This document shows, in pieces, positions 4,842-62,597 of a DNA stretch of 64,000 nucleotides. The notes beneath the pieces were generated by a model that had not been told where the DNA came from, ran no database searches, and worked only from the letters and a program-made list of their open reading frames with translations. The stretch covers positions 29,252 to 93,251 of the forward strand of contig JAZNYG010000015.1 of NCBI GenBank assembly GCA_045594245.1. Direction: 5' to 3'. Position 1 is the stretch's first letter; each line of letters starts with the position of its first letter. The position numbers were made by a program, and so were the translations under genes. The DNA comes from Bacteroidaceae bacterium. GTDB taxonomy: Bacteria; Bacteroidota; Bacteroidia; Bacteroidales; Bacteroidaceae.

Positions 4842-5036
4842 ATGATGAGCAAGAGCAGAAGTTTTTGGAGTTCAAGTCATAAACTGGTATATATTGCATT
4901 GGCCTTCCGGTTTCGTGTTTGGCCAAGCTATATCTATTCATTGGCGCATGGAATGTTGAGAGGAGACTATTCGATACGTGATGAACAGATTCTTGATTCT
5001 CTACTTCGAAAAGGAATAATCTATCGGATAGGATAG
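4842..5036 (+). CDS. Small basic hypothetical protein (64 aa), paralog 2
   Basis: Tandem paralog of 4579-4779, 62 nt downstream on the same strand. The start could also be the second ATG at 4845. Confidence 0.4.
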   Translation: MMSKSRSFWSSSHKLVYIALAFRFRVWPSYIYSLAHGMLRGDYSIRDEQILDSLLRKGIIYRIG

Positions 5037-5055
5037 TATATTGCTATCTCAGCTG

Positions 5056-5880
5056 TTATTTCAGTGCAATGCTTTGTACCTGAATGCTATTGTCAAAAAA
5101 TATGGAAGCATATTCCTTGAATATGTCTACTGACTCTGTAGTGAGGAACTTGCATACTCCCTCTTTAGTGCATAAGGCATCCATTTCGGGATGTCTCTCA
5201 AGATAGTTAATAAGACTTTTTCCTACGTATTCGCCTTGTGTAATCACTTTGATATGTTGGGGGGTGTATTGGCGTATCTTATCGTAGAGGATGGGGTAGT
5301 GGGTACAGCCTAGGATGATGGTGTCAATTAGGCTATCTTTAGCTAGTAGGTTGTCGATATGCCGGCGGACGAAATAGTCGGCTCCTTCACTTTGTGCCTC
5401 ATTGTTCTCGACAAGTGGAACCCAAATGGGACAAGCCTCGCCAGAAACCACAATATCGGGAAAGAGCTTTTTGATTTCCAGTGGGTATGATTGTGACTTG
5501 ATGGTTCCCGAGGTAGCAAGGATACCTACGTGGCGCGACAGGGTAATGTCGTCGAGGTATTCTACCGTAGGACGTATGATGCCTAGTACGCGTTTCCTCG
5601 GGTCAATTTTCGGCAGGTCTATTTGCTGTATGGTACGAAGCGCCTTGGCAGAGGCTGTGTTGCAAGCTAGGATTACAAGCTGGCAACCCATGTCGAAGAG
5701 GGCCTTGACGGCCTGTGAGGTAAACTCATATACTACTTCAAAGGATCGGGTACCGTATGGTGTACGAGCATTGTCGCCTAAATATAAGAAGTCGTATTGA
5801 GGCATACGCTCGCGTATTTGCGAGAGTATAGTGAGACCTCCATATCCGGAGTCGAAGATACCGATGGAACCTGGTGTCAT
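5056..5880 (-). CDS. murI: Glutamate racemase
   Basis: GIFDSGYGGLT, ILACNTASA and LGCTHYP motifs. I prefer the ATG at 5880 (MTPGSIGIFDSG); the longest ORF would start at 5934. Confidence 0.9.
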   Translation of the reverse strand: MTPGSIGIFDSGYGGLTILSQIRERMPQYDFLYLGDNARTPYGTRSFEVVYEFTSQAVKALFDMGCQLVILACNTASAKALRTIQQIDLPKIDPRKRVLGIIRPTVEYLDDITLSRHVGILATSGTIKSQSYPLEIKKLFPDIVVSGEACPIWVPLVENNEAQSEGADYFVRRHIDNLLAKDSLIDTIILGCTHYPILYDKIRQYTPQHIKVITQGEYVGKSLINYLERHPEMDALCTKEGVCKFLTTESVDIFKEYASIFFDNSIQVQSIALK

Positions 5881-6045
5881 GGCTTTTATTGTAATTAGGT
5901 CTGTAAAAGTACGGACTTTATCCGAAGTTTGCAATAGTTTGACTTAAAAGATGGGGATGTGTGGTGCATTTCATGTTTGTGGAATAACTCATAGCTTGGT
6001 CGCATATAAGTCGAATAGGATATTGCTCATATCGGTATAATGTTG

Positions 6046-6053
6046 TATCTTTG
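6046..6053 (+). promoter_or_regulatory. -7 box TATCTTTG (OM barrel gene)
   Basis: Exact TAnnTTTG, 28 nt upstream of the ATG at 6081. Confidence 0.5.
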
Positions 6054-6080
6054 TGTTTTATTTCTAGGAAGATAGATTGT

Positions 6081-30090: not shown

Positions 30091-30124
30091 GCACTGCAGT
30101 GCCCCCAAAAAGCGATAGACTGCC

Positions 30125-30826
30125 ATGCACGAGGAAGTTACACTACAGTGGAGCGAACGCATACAAAGCATACCCGCCGAACAGCCTTTGTATGCCGACA
30201 ACTGCTATGTAGCCATCCTGTTTATAGGCTTCTTTTTCATTATGGCTGCATTTATAGGAAAAGAGAATGCCTTTGCGAAAATATTTAATGAGTTTTTTCT
30301 ACCACGTAAGAATACGGGTGAAGGGGTGAAAACTGCAGGCAGTTTCTATATACAGTTGGGGCTTTTGTGTAATACTTTTATAACGACGGCTCTCTTTTTT
30401 GCCATATATATAATGCGTGGGAGTGGATATGAAACAAAGCAAGGCTATCAATTGTTGGCTCTTTTCTTTGTTGCTGCAGCGGCTGTTTATTGGCTTAAAC
30501 AAGGGATATATGGGGCGTTAAATTGGGTGTTCTTTGATAAATCACAGATGAATATCTGGTTACATTGTTATGCTGATTGGACGATTATTTCTGGTATCTC
30601 AATGTATTTAGTTCTATTATTGTCGGTATTCTTTGATTTGTGCTTAACGACAATGACGATTCTATTGATAATTCATATGTTGTTAACTGAAACATGTTTG
30701 TTTTTCAAGGCATTTCACATCTTTTTGGTAAAAAAATATGGCAGTCTGCAATTAATTGTCTACCTTTGCACCCTCGAAATAATGCCCTTGCTTATGGCAG
30801 GAAAAGCATTGACTCAATATTTGTAA
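30125..30826 (+). CDS. Polytopic membrane protein (DUF4271-like)
   Basis: 233 aa with about 6 hydrophobic segments. It sits directly upstream of hemD, as I recall for DUF4271 genes in Bacteroidetes. Confidence 0.5.
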   Translation: MHEEVTLQWSERIQSIPAEQPLYADNCYVAILFIGFFFIMAAFIGKENAFAKIFNEFFLPRKNTGEGVKTAGSFYIQLGLLCNTFITTALFFAIYIMRGSGYETKQGYQLLALFFVAAAAVYWLKQGIYGALNWVFFDKSQMNIWLHCYADWTIISGISMYLVLLLSVFFDLCLTTMTILLIIHMLLTETCLFFKAFHIFLVKKYGSLQLIVYLCTLEIMPLLMAGKALTQYL

Positions 30827-30847
30827 GGAAGACAAAAACATTAAGCT

Positions 30848-31594
30848 TTGAAAGTAACTAAGATTCTCGTTTCGCAGCCTAAGCCGGCATCGGACAAATC
30901 ACCCTATTTTGACATTGCACGTAAGTATAATGTGACTATTGATTTTAAGCAGTTTATTAAGGTTGAGAGCTTGAGCTCCAAGGAATTTAGGCAACAGAAG
31001 ATCGCAATTCTTGACTATACTGCTATCGTGTTTACTTCGCGACATGCAATAGATCACTTTTTTGGATTATGTGCCGAGTTACGTGTCAATGTACCTGAGA
31101 CAATGAAATATTTTTGTGTCTCAGAGACAATCGCTTTGTACATTCAAAAGTATGTACAATATCGTAAGCGTAAGATATTTTTTGGCGATAATGGTAAGAT
31201 TGATGGTTTGCTCCCTGTGATGGTGAAACATAAGAACGAGAAATATTTTGTTCCGTTGTCGAGTGTGCATACCGATGATATCAAAGATATGCTAGATAAG
31301 AATAACTTGCAGCATGCAGAAGCTGTCATGTACCGTACGGTAAGTAAACTTTTCAATCCGGGGGAACTTGATGGCTACGACATGATGATATTCTTCAGCC
31401 CCTCAGGTATCGTATCGCTCAAGGAAAACCTCCCCAAATTTGATCAGGGTGATATGAGAATCGGATGCTTCGGCCCTGCCACAGCAGCCGCCATTAAGGA
31501 GGCTGGCTTACGACTTGACCTTGAAGCACCAACAGCCGAGGCTCCTTCAATGACTATGGCATTAGAACAGTATCTGACTAAGGTAAACAAGTAA
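30848..31594 (+). CDS. hemD: Uroporphyrinogen-III synthase-like protein
   Basis: The N-terminus KILVSQPKP..KSPYFD..KYNV.IDF is typical of Bacteroidetes HemD-like proteins. Only a TTG start is available. Confidence 0.75.
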   Translation: MKVTKILVSQPKPASDKSPYFDIARKYNVTIDFKQFIKVESLSSKEFRQQKIAILDYTAIVFTSRHAIDHFFGLCAELRVNVPETMKYFCVSETIALYIQKYVQYRKRKIFFGDNGKIDGLLPVMVKHKNEKYFVPLSSVHTDDIKDMLDKNNLQHAEAVMYRTVSKLFNPGELDGYDMMIFFSPSGIVSLKENLPKFDQGDMRIGCFGPATAAAIKEAGLRLDLEAPTAEAPSMTMALEQYLTKVNK

Positions 31595-57252: not shown

Positions 57253-57630
57253 TCATAATTTAGAATTCAGCATTCCCATAATCTCCCGCTCATAATACTC
57301 GTCCATCACATCGCGGCTCTGCACCACGATGAGCACGATGGCGCCTATGCACAGGGCAAAGGTCGTGAAGGTCTCCACGGAGGGGAGCGTATGATCGAGC
57401 AGCGATGACGCCACGGCAAGCAGCGAGGCCGCTATCGGCTGCCAGTAGCAGACGAGCAGGGCTATGCCGCCTCCCCATAGCAGGGCAAAGATGATGACAA
57501 GGTATATGCGGCGCAGGTTGCGCTCGGGCAGCTGGCGCATGATGCGTGCGTGCAGCGAGGCTTCGTGCTCGCGGCTTGTGGTGTCTGCTTTCTGTAGCAG
57601 CGCTCTTATCTGTCGGTCTTCCTTGTTCAT
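57253..57630 (-). CDS. Small membrane protein, putative anti-sigma factor
   Basis: 125 aa with a charged N-terminus and then 2-3 TM segments. Lies 43 nt downstream of the ECF sigma gene. Confidence 0.45.
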   Translation of the reverse strand: MNKEDRQIRALLQKADTTSREHEASLHARIMRQLPERNLRRIYLVIIFALLWGGGIALLVCYWQPIAASLLAVASSLLDHTLPSVETFTTFALCIGAIVLIVVQSRDVMDEYYEREIMGMLNSKL

Positions 57631-57673: not shown

Positions 57674-58219
57674 TTATTTTTCTTCAGTCAGCAAGGTTCG
57701 TAAATGGTTTCGTCCGCGGCTCAGCGATGTCTTGATGGCGCCGGTACTCATCTCCGTCACGGCCGCTATCTCCTTGATGCTCATCTCCTCCAAGTAGAAG
57801 AGCGTGATGCAGGTCTTCTCGCCCTCGCCCAGCATTCCGATGGCGCGGTGCAGAGCCGCTATCTCCTCGGCATCATAGTCGGGCTCCACGGCCAGGTGCT
57901 GCAGAGCGAGTGCCACGTGCTCATCGTCGAGACTCAGGTGATGCTTCACTCCCTTGAGATGGTTCTGATAGGTGGTGAAGGCAATGCGGTACACCCACGT
58001 GCCGAACGCCGAGAGCCGCTTGTAGCTGTCCAGTCCGCGCCACACACGGATGAAGGTCTCCTGCGTGAGGTCATCGCTCAGCGCCTCATCGCCACCCGTC
58101 TGTATGAGGAAGTAGCGGCGCACCGGGCGCAGATACCGCTTCATCAGTCGGCCGAATGCACGCCCATCGTTCAGGAGCAGCACACGGGAGATAAGGAGTA
58201 TTTCTTCGGGACTCGACAC
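57674..58219 (-). CDS. ECF-type RNA polymerase sigma-70 factor
   Basis: Region 2 (DDLTQETFIRVWRGL) and region 4 HTH (MSIKEIAAVTEMSTGAIKTSLSRGR). Confidence 0.85.
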   Translation of the reverse strand: MSSPEEILLISRVLLLNDGRAFGRLMKRYLRPVRRYFLIQTGGDEALSDDLTQETFIRVWRGLDSYKRLSAFGTWVYRIAFTTYQNHLKGVKHHLSLDDEHVALALQHLAVEPDYDAEEIAALHRAIGMLGEGEKTCITLFYLEEMSIKEIAAVTEMSTGAIKTSLSRGRNHLRTLLTEEK

Positions 58220-58496: not shown

Positions 58497-59186
58497 TTAC
58501 TTCTCCTCAATCACTTCAGCCTCTTCTATAGGATTGACCTTAGGTTCACGCTTTACATTTCTACGTCTCCCTTGAAAAAGATAAGGCCCTGTTACTGTAG
58601 CTACAGTACGGATGAAGAGGCGGAGCAAACCTAAACCAGCAAGAGTCATTCCTGCAAAACTTAGGAGATCATCTGGTCCACCGCGTAATGCTCTAGCCCC
58701 GACAAACAGACCTATACCAAGTCCCAGCAATGTAGCATCGCCTATGAACCGTTCCTTCTCTGTCTTCTTCGGCCTCATCAGTGCCTCGATAGCCTCCTTA
58801 CTGATAGGTTCGGTAGAGTTCAGCAGGTTGTTGTCGATGAGTTTGTTGATAAGTTCCTTGTGGTCTTCAGCCTTGCGGCGTGAATTCTTCATTGCTATAT
58901 ATACGATACCAAGGATAGCGCAGGATACAATTAGCAATATAATGATATTGGGCAGATTGCCACGCATAGTACTAAACTTCTTGTCCGCAATACGCGCCAT
59001 CTCTTCTTGATGGGCATACAACTGCGTCAGTCGTGCTCTTTCTACCGAGTCCGTGTATTGTCGAAGTTGCATTTCGCGTTCAAACTTTTGTTCTACATCC
59101 TTTTCATATGGTTTCTCTTGCGCCATTCCCATCACCGGCATCAATGCCACCGCTGCCAATAGCAGCACTTTGAAAAACTTTTTCAT
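58497..59186 (-). CDS. Hypothetical envelope protein (signal peptide, coiled coil, TM segments)
   Basis: The ATG at 59186 gives MKKFFKVLLLAAVALMPVMGMAQ. The longer track ORF (59246) starts at a TTG inside the conserved 46-bp motif. Confidence 0.5.
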   Translation of the reverse strand: MKKFFKVLLLAAVALMPVMGMAQEKPYEKDVEQKFEREMQLRQYTDSVERARLTQLYAHQEEMARIADKKFSTMRGNLPNIIILLIVSCAILGIVYIAMKNSRRKAEDHKELINKLIDNNLLNSTEPISKEAIEALMRPKKTEKERFIGDATLLGLGIGLFVGARALRGGPDDLLSFAGMTLAGLGLLRLFIRTVATVTGPYLFQGRRRNVKREPKVNPIEEAEVIEEK

Positions 59187-59230
59187 ATCGTTCGTTGTTT
59201 TAGTTTGTTTATTCATTTTGTTCGCCTTTG

Positions 59231-59276
59231 TTGGTGTCACCGTCAATTAGACAACACGACTTGCCAAAAGGTTACA
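59231..59276 (-). promoter_or_regulatory. Conserved 46-bp promoter/leader motif, copy A (upstream of the envelope protein-ECF sigma unit)
   Basis: 43 of 46 nt are identical to 62552-62597. On the coding strand it reads TGTAAC-N17-TGTCTAAT-TGACGGTGACACCAA. Confidence 0.6.
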
Positions 59277-59396
59277 GCAAAGGTGAAAAAAATGAGCGAG
59301 AAATATAGATTTTTTTTCAATATTTTTCACAGCGAATGCTGAACATCTTCGCGATTTATCGCAACGGTAAACTTTTTCCCTTGTTTTTTATACAGT

Positions 59397-59456
59397 AAAG
59401 CCTATAAAACCTTCGGAGTATGTCTACACCTATTCTCCGAATATTTTATAGGCTTT
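59397..59456 (-). terminator. Long hairpin downstream of the GHKL/STAS cassette
   Basis: 13-bp arms aaagcctataaaa/ttttataggcttt plus an inner 7-bp stem ttcggag/ctccgaa. No clear U-tail. Confidence 0.4.
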
Positions 59457-59479
59457 CTGATTGTATGGGGCTATTGAGA

Positions 59480-59833
59480 TTATAGCATTAACGAGCCAAG
59501 AACTCGTTGAACATCTGCAAAAGTCTTGCATTTTACAACTGTCGCATCTAATTGTATATCTTTTTCTTTATGCTGAGTGCGTTGGACAGCTTCAAAGATA
59601 TATTGAATATCTTCAGGGATGTTTATGGTTTCAATCTTGATTCCGTTTTGGCTTTTCATGATTGCATTGTAGTACTCATCGATAAAGCTTCTCGTCGCAA
59701 ACTTGACGTTGGCGAAGTCAACAACAGCTGATTCACATCCCATATTCTTGATATAAAGAAGTAAATCGCTGACTGCATATCTCGATTTTAGGTCTTGACT
59801 TAATATCGTTGTTATGTCAATGGTTGTTTTCAT
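59480..59833 (-). CDS. STAS-like domain protein (DUF4325 type)
   Basis: 117 aa. The signature AVVDFANVKFATRSFIDEYY is as I recall it for DUF4325. Lies 18 nt downstream of the GHKL ATPase gene. Confidence 0.65.
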   Translation of the reverse strand: MKTTIDITTILSQDLKSRYAVSDLLLYIKNMGCESAVVDFANVKFATRSFIDEYYNAIMKSQNGIKIETINIPEDIQYIFEAVQRTQHKEKDIQLDATVVKCKTFADVQRVLGSLML

Positions 59834-59851
59834 GCTGCAAATTTAGTAATT

Positions 59852-60742
59852 TTACTCGATATAGTGGATATAGTGGAAGTCCTTATTTATGTAAGGTACT
59901 CTAAGTGCGACTACTGTACCATCCCATCTAATATTTGTTGGAGTTTCAATGAACCGCCTATATTCAGAATTGTACAGATGTAGTGCATTGCCTGACAGCA
60001 TAATGAAACTTCCACTCAATCCCTCTACAAGCATCTTCTTCGATGTGATAATACCATAACCTCTATTCTCCGCATTCGGAAGGTTTTTTGTTGATATGCC
60101 TCTGTTGGCTGCTTGAATTGCCTCAAGGTCACTTTCTATTTCATTGTTGGGAAGGGTTTTGTAACTGCCTAATAGGGTGATTCCGTTGTCTGCAATGCAA
60201 ATGTCCAAGAAGCCTTTTTGTGGAAAAGATTGAGCAAATATATAGCCTCGTTCCGACTGTGCATGCTGAATGATGTTGTCAATTGATTCTCCAAGCATGT
60301 ACTTTAGCCCTGTCAATACATTTGAAGTTAATTCCAGCTGTCTCGATATTATAGATTCAATAGTTGATAATATCGCATCCTTTTCATCATCGCTGTCTTT
60401 TGTAGCAGGAAAACTTACTATAGGTATGTATGTCTCTTGTGAATATCTTTCCATAATAGCAAGGAACTCGCTCTTACGCATTCTGTCAGGACGCATTCCG
60501 TCGGCGAATTCGATTTTTTGGAGATATTCTTTCAGATTGACAATGGTAATGTCTTTGTCACAGCTGTTAAGGAATGCTACCAAAGGCAGTACGTAAGATG
60601 GCGTGACAAACTCGATCTCTGAAAAATCAAGCGTAATACTCTTGTCGGCTGCTTCATTAATCAGATTGATAGCGTTCATTGCAGCCACGAGCCCATCTGA
60701 CATAAGGTCATCTCTAATATCTGCCTTTAATTTGATTTCCAT
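59852..60742 (-). CDS. GHKL (HATPase_c) ATPase / RsbW-SpoIIAB-like kinase with an N-terminal STAS-like domain
   Basis: Bergerat-fold boxes LGESIDNIIQHA (N), ICIADNGITLLG (G1), NRGYGI (G2) and GTVVALRVP. The N-terminal ITLDFSEIEFVTPSYVLPL is STAS/DUF4325-like. Confidence 0.7.
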   Translation of the reverse strand: MEIKLKADIRDDLMSDGLVAAMNAINLINEAADKSITLDFSEIEFVTPSYVLPLVAFLNSCDKDITIVNLKEYLQKIEFADGMRPDRMRKSEFLAIMERYSQETYIPIVSFPATKDSDDEKDAILSTIESIISRQLELTSNVLTGLKYMLGESIDNIIQHAQSERGYIFAQSFPQKGFLDICIADNGITLLGSYKTLPNNEIESDLEAIQAANRGISTKNLPNAENRGYGIITSKKMLVEGLSGSFIMLSGNALHLYNSEYRRFIETPTNIRWDGTVVALRVPYINKDFHYIHYIE

Positions 60743-60769
60743 TTTGCATTCTAAACAAACCTATCCTAT

Positions 60770-60777
60770 GCAAAGTT
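60770..60777 (-). promoter_or_regulatory. -7 box TAACTTTG (GHKL/STAS cassette)
   Basis: Reverse complement of caaagtta, 28 nt upstream of the ATG at 60742. Confidence 0.5.
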
Positions 60778-60872: not shown

Positions 60873-62525
60873 CTATTTCCTTCGAGCTAGCTTCAAGGCT
60901 TTCTCCATAGCCATGGCTTGTGGCACTTGGTAGTCGGGGATTGCGCCGTGTATATTCTTCTCATCGGCACCATATTGCCAGAGGCGCTTGTATGAGATGC
61001 TACAAACGAGTCCTGATACAGGCAACTTGTAGGGAAGGATGTCGCCGAAGCAGACGTTCATCCCTCCTGTCTCTTCGCCTACAATTGTACCCATGCCGAA
61101 TGCCTTGAAAGCCCAAGCGAAGGAACCTGCCGAGGAGAACGTCTGGTGCGATGTGAGCAGGTATACATTGCCTGTAAAACGGCCCTCCTCAGGAGTCAAC
61201 GGGAGGGTGAGGTCTTGGGAGTTGTCGTAATGATAGAGGCCGGGGTGTCTATCTTTAATCTTGGCCAAACGACGCGTGGTAGGGGTGATGCGCACGAATG
61301 CCTTGCTCATCTGCTTAAACGGGACGGGTGATATGTACCTAAACAGTTCGTCACCTACGGCAGAGTTGCCTCCTCCATTCTTGCGGATGTCAATGATGAG
61401 ATTGCCGATGCCCTCGTGGCGCATACATGTAAACATAGAATCGGCAAAGGCACGCATCTTGCCAGGATTATTAAATCTACGGAAGTCCATAATTGCCACA
61501 TTCTGCTTTTTGTCTATCGTGAAAGAATAGTCTTCAGTCTTTTGTTTCTGTTGTTTCTGATATGGCAATCGCTTTGAGATTTCCTCATACTTAGCGGGCA
61601 GGAGAGTTACCGTCTTTCGTTTTTTGCTCTCAGATTCCCGATATTCCACCTTGTAACTGTCGGCCGCGTAGAGCAGTTCGAAGAGCGCAGTAAAGCCTTC
61701 GTTCACTCGTGCCAGACGGAAGAAATAACGCTCACCACTGACATACTGCATCATGTGCTCAAGCATCGTGCGGCTATCCACACCATTTATCGATAGTATC
61801 TTTGAGCCGCGTGGTATGATGCTGTCGATACAGGCTTTTGTAGTGATATTGTAGTTGTGCAGGTCGATATCGACAAAAAGCGGCAGACGGAGAAGTTCTT
61901 TAGTAAAGAGGTCATTGAGCGGAAAACCGAGGTTGCTGTGCCCATCGCCCAACATAGCAACAAGAGGGGCGACCTCCTTGTAGAGCTGTACGCGATTGAG
62001 CGAATCGGGCAGATTGTTCTTCACGCGGTTCACGGCTTCCATAAATTCTGCCTGTCCACATTCGTAAAACATGTTTGGATGCACCTCGCTGAATGTGTAT
62101 ACCAAGGCATCAATGTCAAACTCTGCCTGTTTACGGCTGAACATGCCCGATGGACTTCGTCTGCAGAAATCTTCCGCAGGTTCTTCGAGCGGATTGTCGG
62201 TAATCCATTTTATACGCGTGTAGGCCGTGTCACATCCGTTCTGCAAGATGATAAAGTCATACACTCCTCCCCGTTCGATGTTAAAGGCTAGCGTATCACG
62301 CTTCTCGTTCATAAAGAAGAGTTTCTTTGCCGATGTTTCATATATGTCGGGCCGAATCTTGGGGTTTATTATCCACCATCCTGTCGGCTTTCCTGCTCCG
62401 TCTTCAAAGATGGGCAATGCCTTCTCGCTTGTTCTGATTATTGGAAGCGCAGTTCTCTTCTCGTCTTGTTGTGCCACTCCAGCCAAAGGAAGAATTATGG
62501 CAATTGTCAAGAGTATTTTTTTCAT
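60873..62525 (-). CDS. S41 family (tail-specific/C-terminal processing type) peptidase
   Basis: The ATG at 62525 gives the signal peptide MKKILLTIAIILPLAGVAQQ. Motifs IIDIRKNGGGNS and TFSSAGSFAWAFK...IVGEETGG. Confidence 0.8.
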   Translation of the reverse strand: MKKILLTIAIILPLAGVAQQDEKRTALPIIRTSEKALPIFEDGAGKPTGWWIINPKIRPDIYETSAKKLFFMNEKRDTLAFNIERGGVYDFIILQNGCDTAYTRIKWITDNPLEEPAEDFCRRSPSGMFSRKQAEFDIDALVYTFSEVHPNMFYECGQAEFMEAVNRVKNNLPDSLNRVQLYKEVAPLVAMLGDGHSNLGFPLNDLFTKELLRLPLFVDIDLHNYNITTKACIDSIIPRGSKILSINGVDSRTMLEHMMQYVSGERYFFRLARVNEGFTALFELLYAADSYKVEYRESESKKRKTVTLLPAKYEEISKRLPYQKQQKQKTEDYSFTIDKKQNVAIMDFRRFNNPGKMRAFADSMFTCMRHEGIGNLIIDIRKNGGGNSAVGDELFRYISPVPFKQMSKAFVRITPTTRRLAKIKDRHPGLYHYDNSQDLTLPLTPEEGRFTGNVYLLTSHQTFSSAGSFAWAFKAFGMGTIVGEETGGMNVCFGDILPYKLPVSGLVCSISYKRLWQYGADEKNIHGAIPDYQVPQAMAMEKALKLARRK

Positions 62526-62551
62526 ATGTGTCATGTCTATTTGTTTGTACC

Positions 62552-62597
62552 TTGGTGTCACCGTCAATTAGACAACCTAACTTGCCAAAAGGTTACA
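62552..62597 (-). promoter_or_regulatory. Conserved 46-bp promoter/leader motif, copy B (upstream of the S41 peptidase)
   Basis: Same motif as 59231-59276. It ends 27 nt upstream of the S41 ATG. Confidence 0.6.

Follow-up and report, generated by a model that had tools for sequence, protein, structure and literature searches.

A mobile two-gene cassette of a STAS-GHKL kinase and a STAS-like partner in a Bacteroidaceae genome, related to VapKSC and CapK/CapS and lacking an adjacent effector gene

The cassette and the folds of its two proteins

The DNA investigated was a stretch of 64,000 nucleotides (nt) from a Bacteroidaceae bacterium (assembly GCA_045594245.1, contig JAZNYG010000015.1, positions 29,252 to 93,251), referred to below as the window. 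It carries a cassette of two minus-strand genes separated by 18 nt; the first in transcription order encodes a protein of 296 amino acids (aa) with a STAS-like domain fused to a GHKL ATPase domain (K, the kinase), and the second encodes a free STAS-like protein of 117 aa (S, the partner). The cassette is a real, well-delimited mobile unit and an effector-less relative of a kind of module described in 2026, to which it stands as a large sister clade. Both open reading frames (ORFs), their spacing and all peptides quoted from them in an earlier annotation made from the sequence of the window (the original prediction) were present. The coordinates of the features are given in Table 1.

The G+C content (GC) of the cassette was 0.383, compared with a window mean of 0.499 (standard deviation 0.048), and 1.4% of 1263-nt segments were as GC-poor, the very lowest of them starting at 59101-59651. 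The original prediction had placed the lowest GC of the window here, which holds, and its hand counts on single lines of 60 nt (22/60 and 20/60 in the cassette, 34/60 in a nearby sigma factor gene) were exact. A second stretch at about 30100-31400 was almost as low, and since it holds apparent core genes, low GC alone is not proof of foreign origin; in this part of the window (30125-31594), next to rnpA, a HemD-like protein and a membrane protein of the multi-pass type are encoded.

The sequence TAACTTTG reads as a -7 promoter box of the Bacteroidetes type (TAnnTTTG), with 27 nt separating it from the ATG of K. Homologous cassettes were compared in 80 species-level genome loci, mostly from gut and rumen Bacteroidales, and the window itself matched a Bacteroidaceae MAG from roe-deer colon at 100%; the counts below refer to 67-80 of these loci. 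Between -120 and +30 relative to the start of the kinase gene, 52 of 77 loci (68%) had a TAnnTTTG box, compared with 9% of random 150-nt windows. This suggests that the cassette travels with a promoter of its own; the original prediction had given the unit its own box. The hairpin of 13+7 base pairs (bp) noted behind S was also borne out by folding (-31 kcal/mol, z = -7.3), none of 200 shuffles being equally stable. It was kept in L001, L002, L004, L005, L006 and L027, among which are same-species contigs, and in L125; having no T-run, it was missed by a simple intrinsic-terminator scan. The hairpin probably marks where the transcript of the cassette ends, or stabilises it.

The AlphaFold2 (AF2) model of K, built on an alignment of 27 sequences, reached a pLDDT of 87.3 and a pTM of 0.88. 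In Foldseek searches the C-terminal two-thirds of the model best matched SpoIIAB (1til_E and 1l0o_A; probability 1.00, TM score 0.72-0.77 on the target), and the first ~110 residues matched the RsbV chains of the RsbV/RsbW complex 6m37 (86-94 columns, 24-28% identity). Both the GHKL fold and the STAS-like domain ahead of it, as read in the original prediction, were thus found in the model. Library scans revealed no helix-turn-helix (HTH) family on K, and the STAS fold of the model begins at residue 2. At the sequence level the Pfam matches of K were sub-threshold (HATPase_c, E 0.002; N-terminal domain with DUF4325, 13 bits), as were the NCBIfam matches; Pfam E values for DUF4325 across both proteins were 0.02-0.09. 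Searches of PDB sequences with profiles of K and S returned nothing relevant, so that a fold search was needed. A PADLOC model of a DrmA variant (PDLC02567) matched residues 105-254 of K with an E value of 2.5e-10, which is better than Pfam HATPase_c, and this match covers positions 103-244 of the 1750 of the model. A profile search of 1.84 billion representatives yielded 2565 homologues of K at E <= 0.001 and 261 at E <= 1e-30, the latter nearly all about 300 aa in length; the label given by JGI to homologues of K was 'anti-sigma regulatory factor (Ser/Thr protein kinase)'.

Residues E152, D155, N156, H160, D185, G187, G228 and G230 of K were identical in 86 of 86 unique homologues. Because these Bergerat residues are invariant, K is, judged by sequence conservation, almost certainly an active enzyme. 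The column of its STAS domain that corresponds to the canonical phospho-Ser is occupied by Pro48, which was kept in 84 of the 86 homologues, and Phe45 was present in 70. The residue beside this column that is Thr in K was not conserved as a hydroxyl (T in 39, H in 20, S in 17 and N in 4 of the 86).

The AF2 model of S (pLDDT 85.9) showed a beta-alpha-beta-alpha-beta-alpha STAS-like core in residues 1-87, followed by a flexible linker and a single C-terminal helix (residues 105-114). Its Foldseek matches were mostly STAS domains of RsbS, SpoIIAA and SLC26, with probabilities of <=0.99 and E values of >= 0.012. These matches agree with the free DUF4325/STAS-like partner of the original prediction. 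With Pfam DUF4325 itself S scored 14.9 bits (E 0.022), below the gathering threshold of 23 bits, which is exceeded by its homologue ORFC of psiM100 (29.4 bits); a relative 79% identical to S is named 'STAS-like domain-containing protein' at NCBI. Position 47 of S was T (47) or S (32) in 79 unique partners, and R48, S49 and F50 were each found in 79 of 79. In the model, helix alpha2 starts at R48 and Thr47 is the residue just ahead of it. The Thr/Ser that the original prediction had placed at the phospho-Ser site of both proteins is found in the flank of that column in ungapped alignments, the column itself being Pro48 in K and Arg48 in S.

Table 1. Features of the cassette and of its surroundings in the window
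Feature	Position	Strand	Basis or remark
Kinase gene K	59852..60742	minus	ORF, 296 aa (span including stop)
Partner gene S	59480..59833	minus	ORF, 117 aa
STAS-like N-terminal domain of K, about residues 1-112	60407..60742	minus	Secondary structure of model; RsbV matches
Linker and GHKL (Bergerat) domain of K	59855..60406	minus	Model; motif conservation
N-box of K, E152/D155/N156	60275-60289	minus	Motif
G1 box of K, D185-x-G187	60182-60190	minus	Motif
G2 box of K, R227-G228-x-G230	60053-60064	minus	Motif; G275-T276 further on
Codons T47-R48-S49 of S, [S/T]-R-S-F motif	59687..59695	minus	Candidate phospho-acceptor site, N-terminus of helix alpha2
TAACTTTG, Bacteroidetes-type -7 promoter box (TAnnTTTG)	60770..60777	minus	Sequence read; putative promoter
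Hairpin, 13+7 bp	59397..59456	minus	Folding; 23 nt past stop codon of S
ECF sigma gene	57674-58219		ORF; 1.3 kb from cassette
Membrane anti-sigma-like gene	57253-57630		Neighbour of ECF sigma gene
DUF6249 gene	58497-59246		Preceded by ECF-type promoter repeat
S41 peptidase gene	60873-62534		Preceded by ECF-type promoter repeat
46-bp repeat, two copies	59231-59276 and 62552-62597	minus	Contains ECF-type promoter TGTAACC-N17-GTCTAA

Pairing, distribution and mobility

In all 75 loci with enough sequence (75 of 75), S was the gene immediately after K. Clustering of 1051 genes from the flanking DNA (at most 10 kb per side) showed K and S as the only recurrent ones, and the next cluster was present in <=5 of 77 loci. 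Among the 233 immediate neighbours there was no recurrent sigma factor (Sigma70), SpoIIE/PP2C phosphatase, further STAS or PIN family; the commonest family was phage integrase (4), followed by scattered capsule, insertion sequence and defence genes. The operon had been described as lacking a sigma factor, a PP2C phosphatase and an output domain, and this holds across the 75 loci; nor were homologues always found with a sigma or anti-sigma partner, which the original prediction had named as an outcome that would speak against it. On the Nostoc cf. commune plasmid pANSO36B (L113, 1914-3158) the two proteins are joined in a 414-aa fusion, with the kinase at residues 26-265 and a partner-like STAS domain at 339-396, which is Rosetta-stone evidence that K and S work together.

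The pair was also observed on mobile elements outside the Bacteroidales chromosomes, namely on Bacteroides phage BF1-TP2 (gp43/gp42), a faecal phage scaffold, a Clostridioides phage, and plasmids of Halobaculum and Alicyclobacillus. In the Methanothermobacter prophage psiM100 (L017), ORFB (4935-5693) and ORFC (5743-6066) form a homologous kinase/DUF4325 pair within the 'inserted fragment IFa'; the psiM100 record also lists this pair as MTH315/MTH316, and the 492-aa ORFD of IFa has no family match. Literature on DUF4325 consisted of incidental mentions, the leads being a PIN.4 VapC coupled to DUF4325 and a pair in the Francisella prophage KIRK, where a protein of 293 aa and a DUF4325 protein of 112 aa are described between the CI repressor and the integrase. 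Kinase copies of 49-80% identity were further found on short contigs that binning had assigned to Oscillospiraceae, Clostridia, Paceibacterota and Anaerolineaceae (L028, L035, L061, L066), which are either mis-binned Bacteroidales DNA or cases of real inter-phylum transfer.

In 65 of 71 loci the AT content of the pair exceeded that of the flanking DNA (mean 8.5 points, Wilcoxon p = 3.5e-12), and its genomic contexts, in more than 70 other species, were unrelated between taxa; a conserved core locus of normal composition, the other outcome named as contrary, was not seen. In Alistipes the pair comes directly after an integrase, on an integrase-bounded island that also carries WYL and restriction-modification genes, and in Butyricimonas it lies beside a prophage lysis module; elsewhere it was found in capsule loci. 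In one lineage (L018-L020, 9426-12342) an SNF2 helicase gene with strong ZorD/DpdE-like PADLOC matches follows 163 nt downstream of the pair on the same strand, together with a gene for a UPF0158 protein, and an HTH_3 gene paired with a 153-aa gene precedes it, which looks like a defence-island context. GajA, AbiE, DRT, PDC-S01 and Vsr genes were observed near some copies.

Comparison with relatives revealed a kinase-deleted copy at the same chromosomal site in L125 and L126 (Logan SRR28221532/SRR28221522), where the S41 peptidase is 85% identical to that of the window. The deletion of ~887 nt took away the promoter together with roughly 260 of the codons of K, leaving the last 35 codons of K, an intact S and the hairpin. 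This remnant shares 92.6% nucleotide identity with the window, compared with 80.4% for the adjoining S41 gene, and the synonymous divergence was 0.25 for S and 0.58 for the S41 gene. The dN/dS of S between the two lineages was 0.06, indicating purifying selection. The lower synonymous divergence of S and its low dN/dS suggest recent exchange and purifying selection of S. Truncated kinases were found at two further loci, L073 and L101.

Relation to known modules and proposed function

Pairs of a GHKL kinase and a STAS protein were recognised as DNA-damage sensors only in 2026 (Chambers et al., EMBO J, PMC13373217), so that the statement of the original prediction that pairs of an ATPase and a DUF4325 protein have no assigned function is out of date. 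Two kinds were described there. CapK is an HTH-STAS-GHKL kinase activated by single-stranded DNA (ssDNA) that phosphorylates the STAS-winged-HTH repressor CapS, and CapK/CapS are DNA-damage-responsive regulators of CBASS, Bub and Thoeris operons (PMC13373217). In VapKSC, the ssDNA-activated VapK (STAS-GHKL, 302 aa) acts with VapS, a STAS protein of 116 aa with a short C-terminal helix and a phospho-Ser at position 48, and with the PIN toxin VapC; VapS restrains the RNase VapC, the system protects against a phage, and VapK is the trigger and not the toxin (PMC13373217).

VapK and VapS sequences were taken from the supplementary model file of PMC13373217, and a VapK profile was made from the E. 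coli and Deinococcus proteins. When VapK was searched against plasmids by tblastn, two matches were obtained, of which the Deinococcus one is a bona fide vapKSC operon (ATP-binding protein, STAS-like protein, PIN). K aligned with the VapK profile in hhalign with a probability of 93.3% and an E value of 2.8e-7, colinearly over 244 columns and with all motifs in register; HMMER gave full-length matches of 12.5 and 19.5 bits. On these alignments K is a remote homologue of VapK. The two kinases agree in their STAS-GHKL architecture and in size, in being followed by the gene of a STAS/DUF4325 protein of nearly the same length with a short C-terminal helix, and in an aromatic residue at the proposed ssDNA contact, F54 of VapK aligning with F45 of K. 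Both systems are broadly spread, including Bacteroidota and methanogens, and both often have defence genes nearby. They differ in that the K-S clade has no VapC/PIN gene in more than 75 loci, that S carries [S/T]-R-S-F where VapS carries x-S-x-F, that the C-terminal tail of S is hydrophobic and that of VapS acidic, and that K is about 20% identical to E. coli VapK.

With CapK/CapS the cassette has in common a GHKL kinase with an internal STAS domain followed by the gene of a STAS-domain substrate or candidate substrate, the logic of kinase and substrate, and, in K, a catalytic Asn in a similar DHSES-like N-box context. In contrast to CapK and CapS, K has no N-terminal HTH and S, with its core, linker and one helix in 117 aa, has no winged-helix DNA-binding domain; furthermore, no immune operon follows K-S, the downstream genes being unrelated. 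The cassette therefore lacks both the VapC gene of one system and the two HTH domains of the other, yet it has the sensor-switch core. A variable third gene acting as the effector, in the manner of CapKS, was considered and rejected, as downstream genes are rarely co-oriented and are unrelated.

More distant likenesses were also observed. The best structural matches of K and S are to the SpoIIAB/SpoIIAA and RsbW/RsbV families (1til, 1l0o, 1tid, 6m37, 6jhk), with which they share the motifs of the Bergerat ATP site and hydroxyl residues of the STAS partner at the start of helix alpha2. Unlike these families, K-S has neither a sigma-factor target nor a PP2C phosphatase, its kinase is fused to a STAS domain, the pair also occurs in archaea and on phages, and the canonical phospho-Ser column is Arg in S and Pro in K. 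The GHKL domain of K, at the level of this domain only, also resembles those of defence helicases, i.e. the DrmA variant PDLC02567 and the DpdF-like 'alt-Cas3' C3a193; in the 1266-aa protein P0309 a complete STAS-GHKL module of this family forms the C-terminal part, fused to a Cas3/DpdF-like DEAD-box helicase (PADLOC C3a193, E 2e-163). K itself has no helicase or nuclease part and, in contrast to DISARM, the window locus has no helicase, and no DrmB, DrmC or methylase gene of that system lies nearby. LvrC of Leptospira (PDB 9qih; Foldseek E 3.4e-4) likewise consists of a regulatory alpha/beta domain followed by a Bergerat domain like that of RsbW, and is of similar length, but its N-terminal domain is a phospho-accepting receiver and not a STAS domain, it is part of a two-component relay, and its overall superposition with K was poor (TM score 0.33, root-mean-square deviation 17 Å).

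On balance, the cassette is probably a phospho-switch of the CapK/VapK superfamily, made up of two genes, transcribed on its own and spread horizontally, in which K senses and S is the dedicated partner. The folds, the invariant catalytic site, the strict coupling of K and S including their fusion, the mobility and the homology of K to VapK all come from this analysis; phosphotransfer to S, an ssDNA signal and a role in stress or phage defence would follow by analogy. The built-in STAS domain of K and its kinase domain would form the sensing module, and its ligand, going by VapK and CapK, is likely to be ssDNA that arises when DNA is damaged or a phage infects, and that would bind between the STAS domain and the GHKL domain. 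Activated K would then bind S and most likely phosphorylate it where helix alpha2 begins, on Thr47 or Ser49, and this modification may alter what S binds. Since the clade encodes no effector beside the pair, the output must lie elsewhere or in K; it might be a protein encoded in another part of the host or in a phage, or the activity of K on other substrates. This agrees with the self-contained stress or phage sensing switch suggested in the original prediction, which the homology of K to VapK and CapK fits.

Several observations weigh against the phospho-switch. S and VapS are only weakly similar (hhalign E 0.0034 over 31 columns), and ssDNA sensing is carried over by homology at about 20% identity. 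In the ungapped alignments of MAFFT and hhalign it is R48 of S that is paired with S48 of VapS; the HMMER alignment, one residue off these, pairs T47 with it. S might therefore not be a canonical substrate, given an invariant Arg in the phospho-Ser column of VapS. No effector is encoded with the pair: a co-oriented gene followed within <=60 nt downstream in only 7 of 67 loci, and these genes were unrelated housekeeping ones (Tex-like, MatE, peptidase C69, HigA-like), while BLASTP with Deinococcus VapC found no PIN homologue in any of the 80 loci. Close relatives of the pair were present on only 6 of 2.9 million IMG/VR contigs, and the association with defence genes was modest, at roughly 10 of ~75 loci as a raw count; VapKSC has a defence-neighbourhood score of 36%. 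A bolder version, which we put forward tentatively, is that K-S is a complete immune or stress module of a new class without a separate effector, carried by phages and islands into gut Bacteroidales, Firmicutes, cyanobacteria and archaea; S, with Arg48 in place of the phospho-Ser, would then be a pseudo-substrate or a regulator acting as an arginine finger, and as output K would phosphorylate proteins of the host or of a phage, or a target elsewhere would be controlled.

That K could instead be the toxin of a two-gene toxin-antitoxin or abortive-infection module, phosphorylating essential host or phage proteins while S acts as antitoxin in the form of a decoy substrate or inhibitor, seems doubtful, though it overlaps with the phospho-switch, with the output fixed as the kinase. 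Such a module would suit a self-contained pair without another effector, its low GC and a distribution like that of mobile genetic elements and phage morons, and in VapKSC it is DUF4325 proteins that act as antitoxins of PIN toxins. However, K and S both lack a DNA-binding domain through which the module could regulate itself, the presumed antitoxin gene comes second, and the kinase of VapKSC is the trigger rather than the toxin. The loss of promoter and kinase codons in L125/L126 with S kept intact is the order of decay expected if K is harmful, but it equally fits the simple loss of a dispensable system. We consider it improbable that the cassette is cargo serving its own element, either as a DNA-damage sensor for prophage induction or superinfection exclusion or as a counter-defence that titrates host immunity of the VapK/CapK type. 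Its accessory positions in temperate phages and prophages (BF1-TP2 gp43/gp42, psiM100 IFa, KIRK, Butyricimonas, Alistipes) would agree with this, yet in most of the 77 loci no phage gene is among the two nearest genes to the left or to the right, integrases make up only 4 of the 233 neighbours, the pair is rare on IMG/VR contigs as stated above, and the window copy lies between chromosomal genes of an extracytoplasmic function (ECF) sigma regulon. Moreover, a decoy needs no intact kinase, yet the active site is invariant.

The lack of an effector, the part-deleted copy in L125/L126 and the truncated kinases of L073 and L101 could also point to a vapKSC-type operon in decay, its toxin gone and its function with it. 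This is very improbable, given that the two-gene form is the rule at all 75 loci and among the 261 close representatives of about 300 aa, that it is spread over bacteria, archaea and phages, that neither the catalytic residues nor the [S/T]RSF motif vary, that S is under purifying selection and that the promoter box is kept in most loci. Least credible of all is an ordinary anti-sigma/anti-anti-sigma pair of the Rsb/SpoIIA type that feeds into the ECF sigma factor of the window or into another sigma factor. It would explain the closeness of K to SpoIIAB and of S to SpoIIAA, RsbV and RsbS, the JGI annotation of the homologues, and the ECF sigma gene that is found near the pair in the window and in two other contexts. 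Against it stand the neighbourhoods described above, in which no Sigma70, SpoIIE/PP2C or further STAS gene recurs and no cluster exceeds 5 of 77 loci, the position of the ECF-type promoter ahead of the S41 and DUF6249 genes and not of the pair, and the membrane anti-sigma-like neighbour which the ECF sigma factor already has. To our knowledge, archaea have no sigma factors, and because homologous pairs exist in the archaea Methanothermobacter and Halobaculum, a sigma factor is ruled out as the conserved target. For the same reasons (no ECF-type promoter ahead of the pair, more than 70 other species with unrelated contexts, and archaea among the hosts) the suggestion in the original prediction that the cassette is an accessory input into the neighbouring ECF system was not supported.

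The clade is common in gut and rumen Bacteroidales and also present in phages, on plasmids and in an archaeal prophage; if the cassette is a phospho-switch, the clade carries a sensor and a switch without a visible output. The binding target of S would either point to a new effector logic, with the kinase in that role or a target encoded elsewhere, or show that the known module serves further outputs. The long unexplained ORFB/ORFC insertion of psiM100 would gain a function as well, and so would many proteins labelled 'anti-sigma regulatory factor' in organisms without a sigma partner; the [S/T]-R-S-F motif provides a simple, testable handle.

Surroundings of the cassette

The flanking 46-bp repeat reported in the original prediction is real and present in two copies. 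The promoter repeat that it contains lies ahead of the S41 peptidase and DUF6249 genes and never ahead of the K-S pair, and these genes are probably the regulon of the nearby ECF sigma factor. Past S, the order of features in the window is the hairpin and then the DUF6249 gene with its ECF-type promoter. A sister lineage keeps the ECF sigma, anti-sigma, DUF6249 and S41 genes together, and in L107 of this lineage a motif resembling the repeat was observed ahead of DUF6249. The cassette is lodged inside this regulon without belonging to it, and the proximity is coincidental.

An additional gene between the cassette and DUF6249 was observed in L027, L001, L002 and L005. It encodes a 947-aa outer-membrane beta-barrel protein (OMP_b-brl_3, CarbopepD_reg_2) and is preceded by a separate copy of the ECF promoter repeat. 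Since the gene is absent in the window (59247-59480) and in L004, it represents a presence/absence polymorphism between repeated promoters. As a partner of the cassette it was rejected, being an outer-membrane beta-barrel with its own ECF-type promoter.

The locus of 57% identity, L111, was not syntenic with the window. An 'empty site' in L107-L110, with an S41 peptidase of 69% identity, was rejected, as these contigs stop 22 nt past the S41 stop codon. Five independent assemblies of the sister lineage (L107-L110 and L127) all break at this same point, 22 nt after the stop, which hints at strain-variable or repeated DNA at the very place that the cassette occupies in the window.

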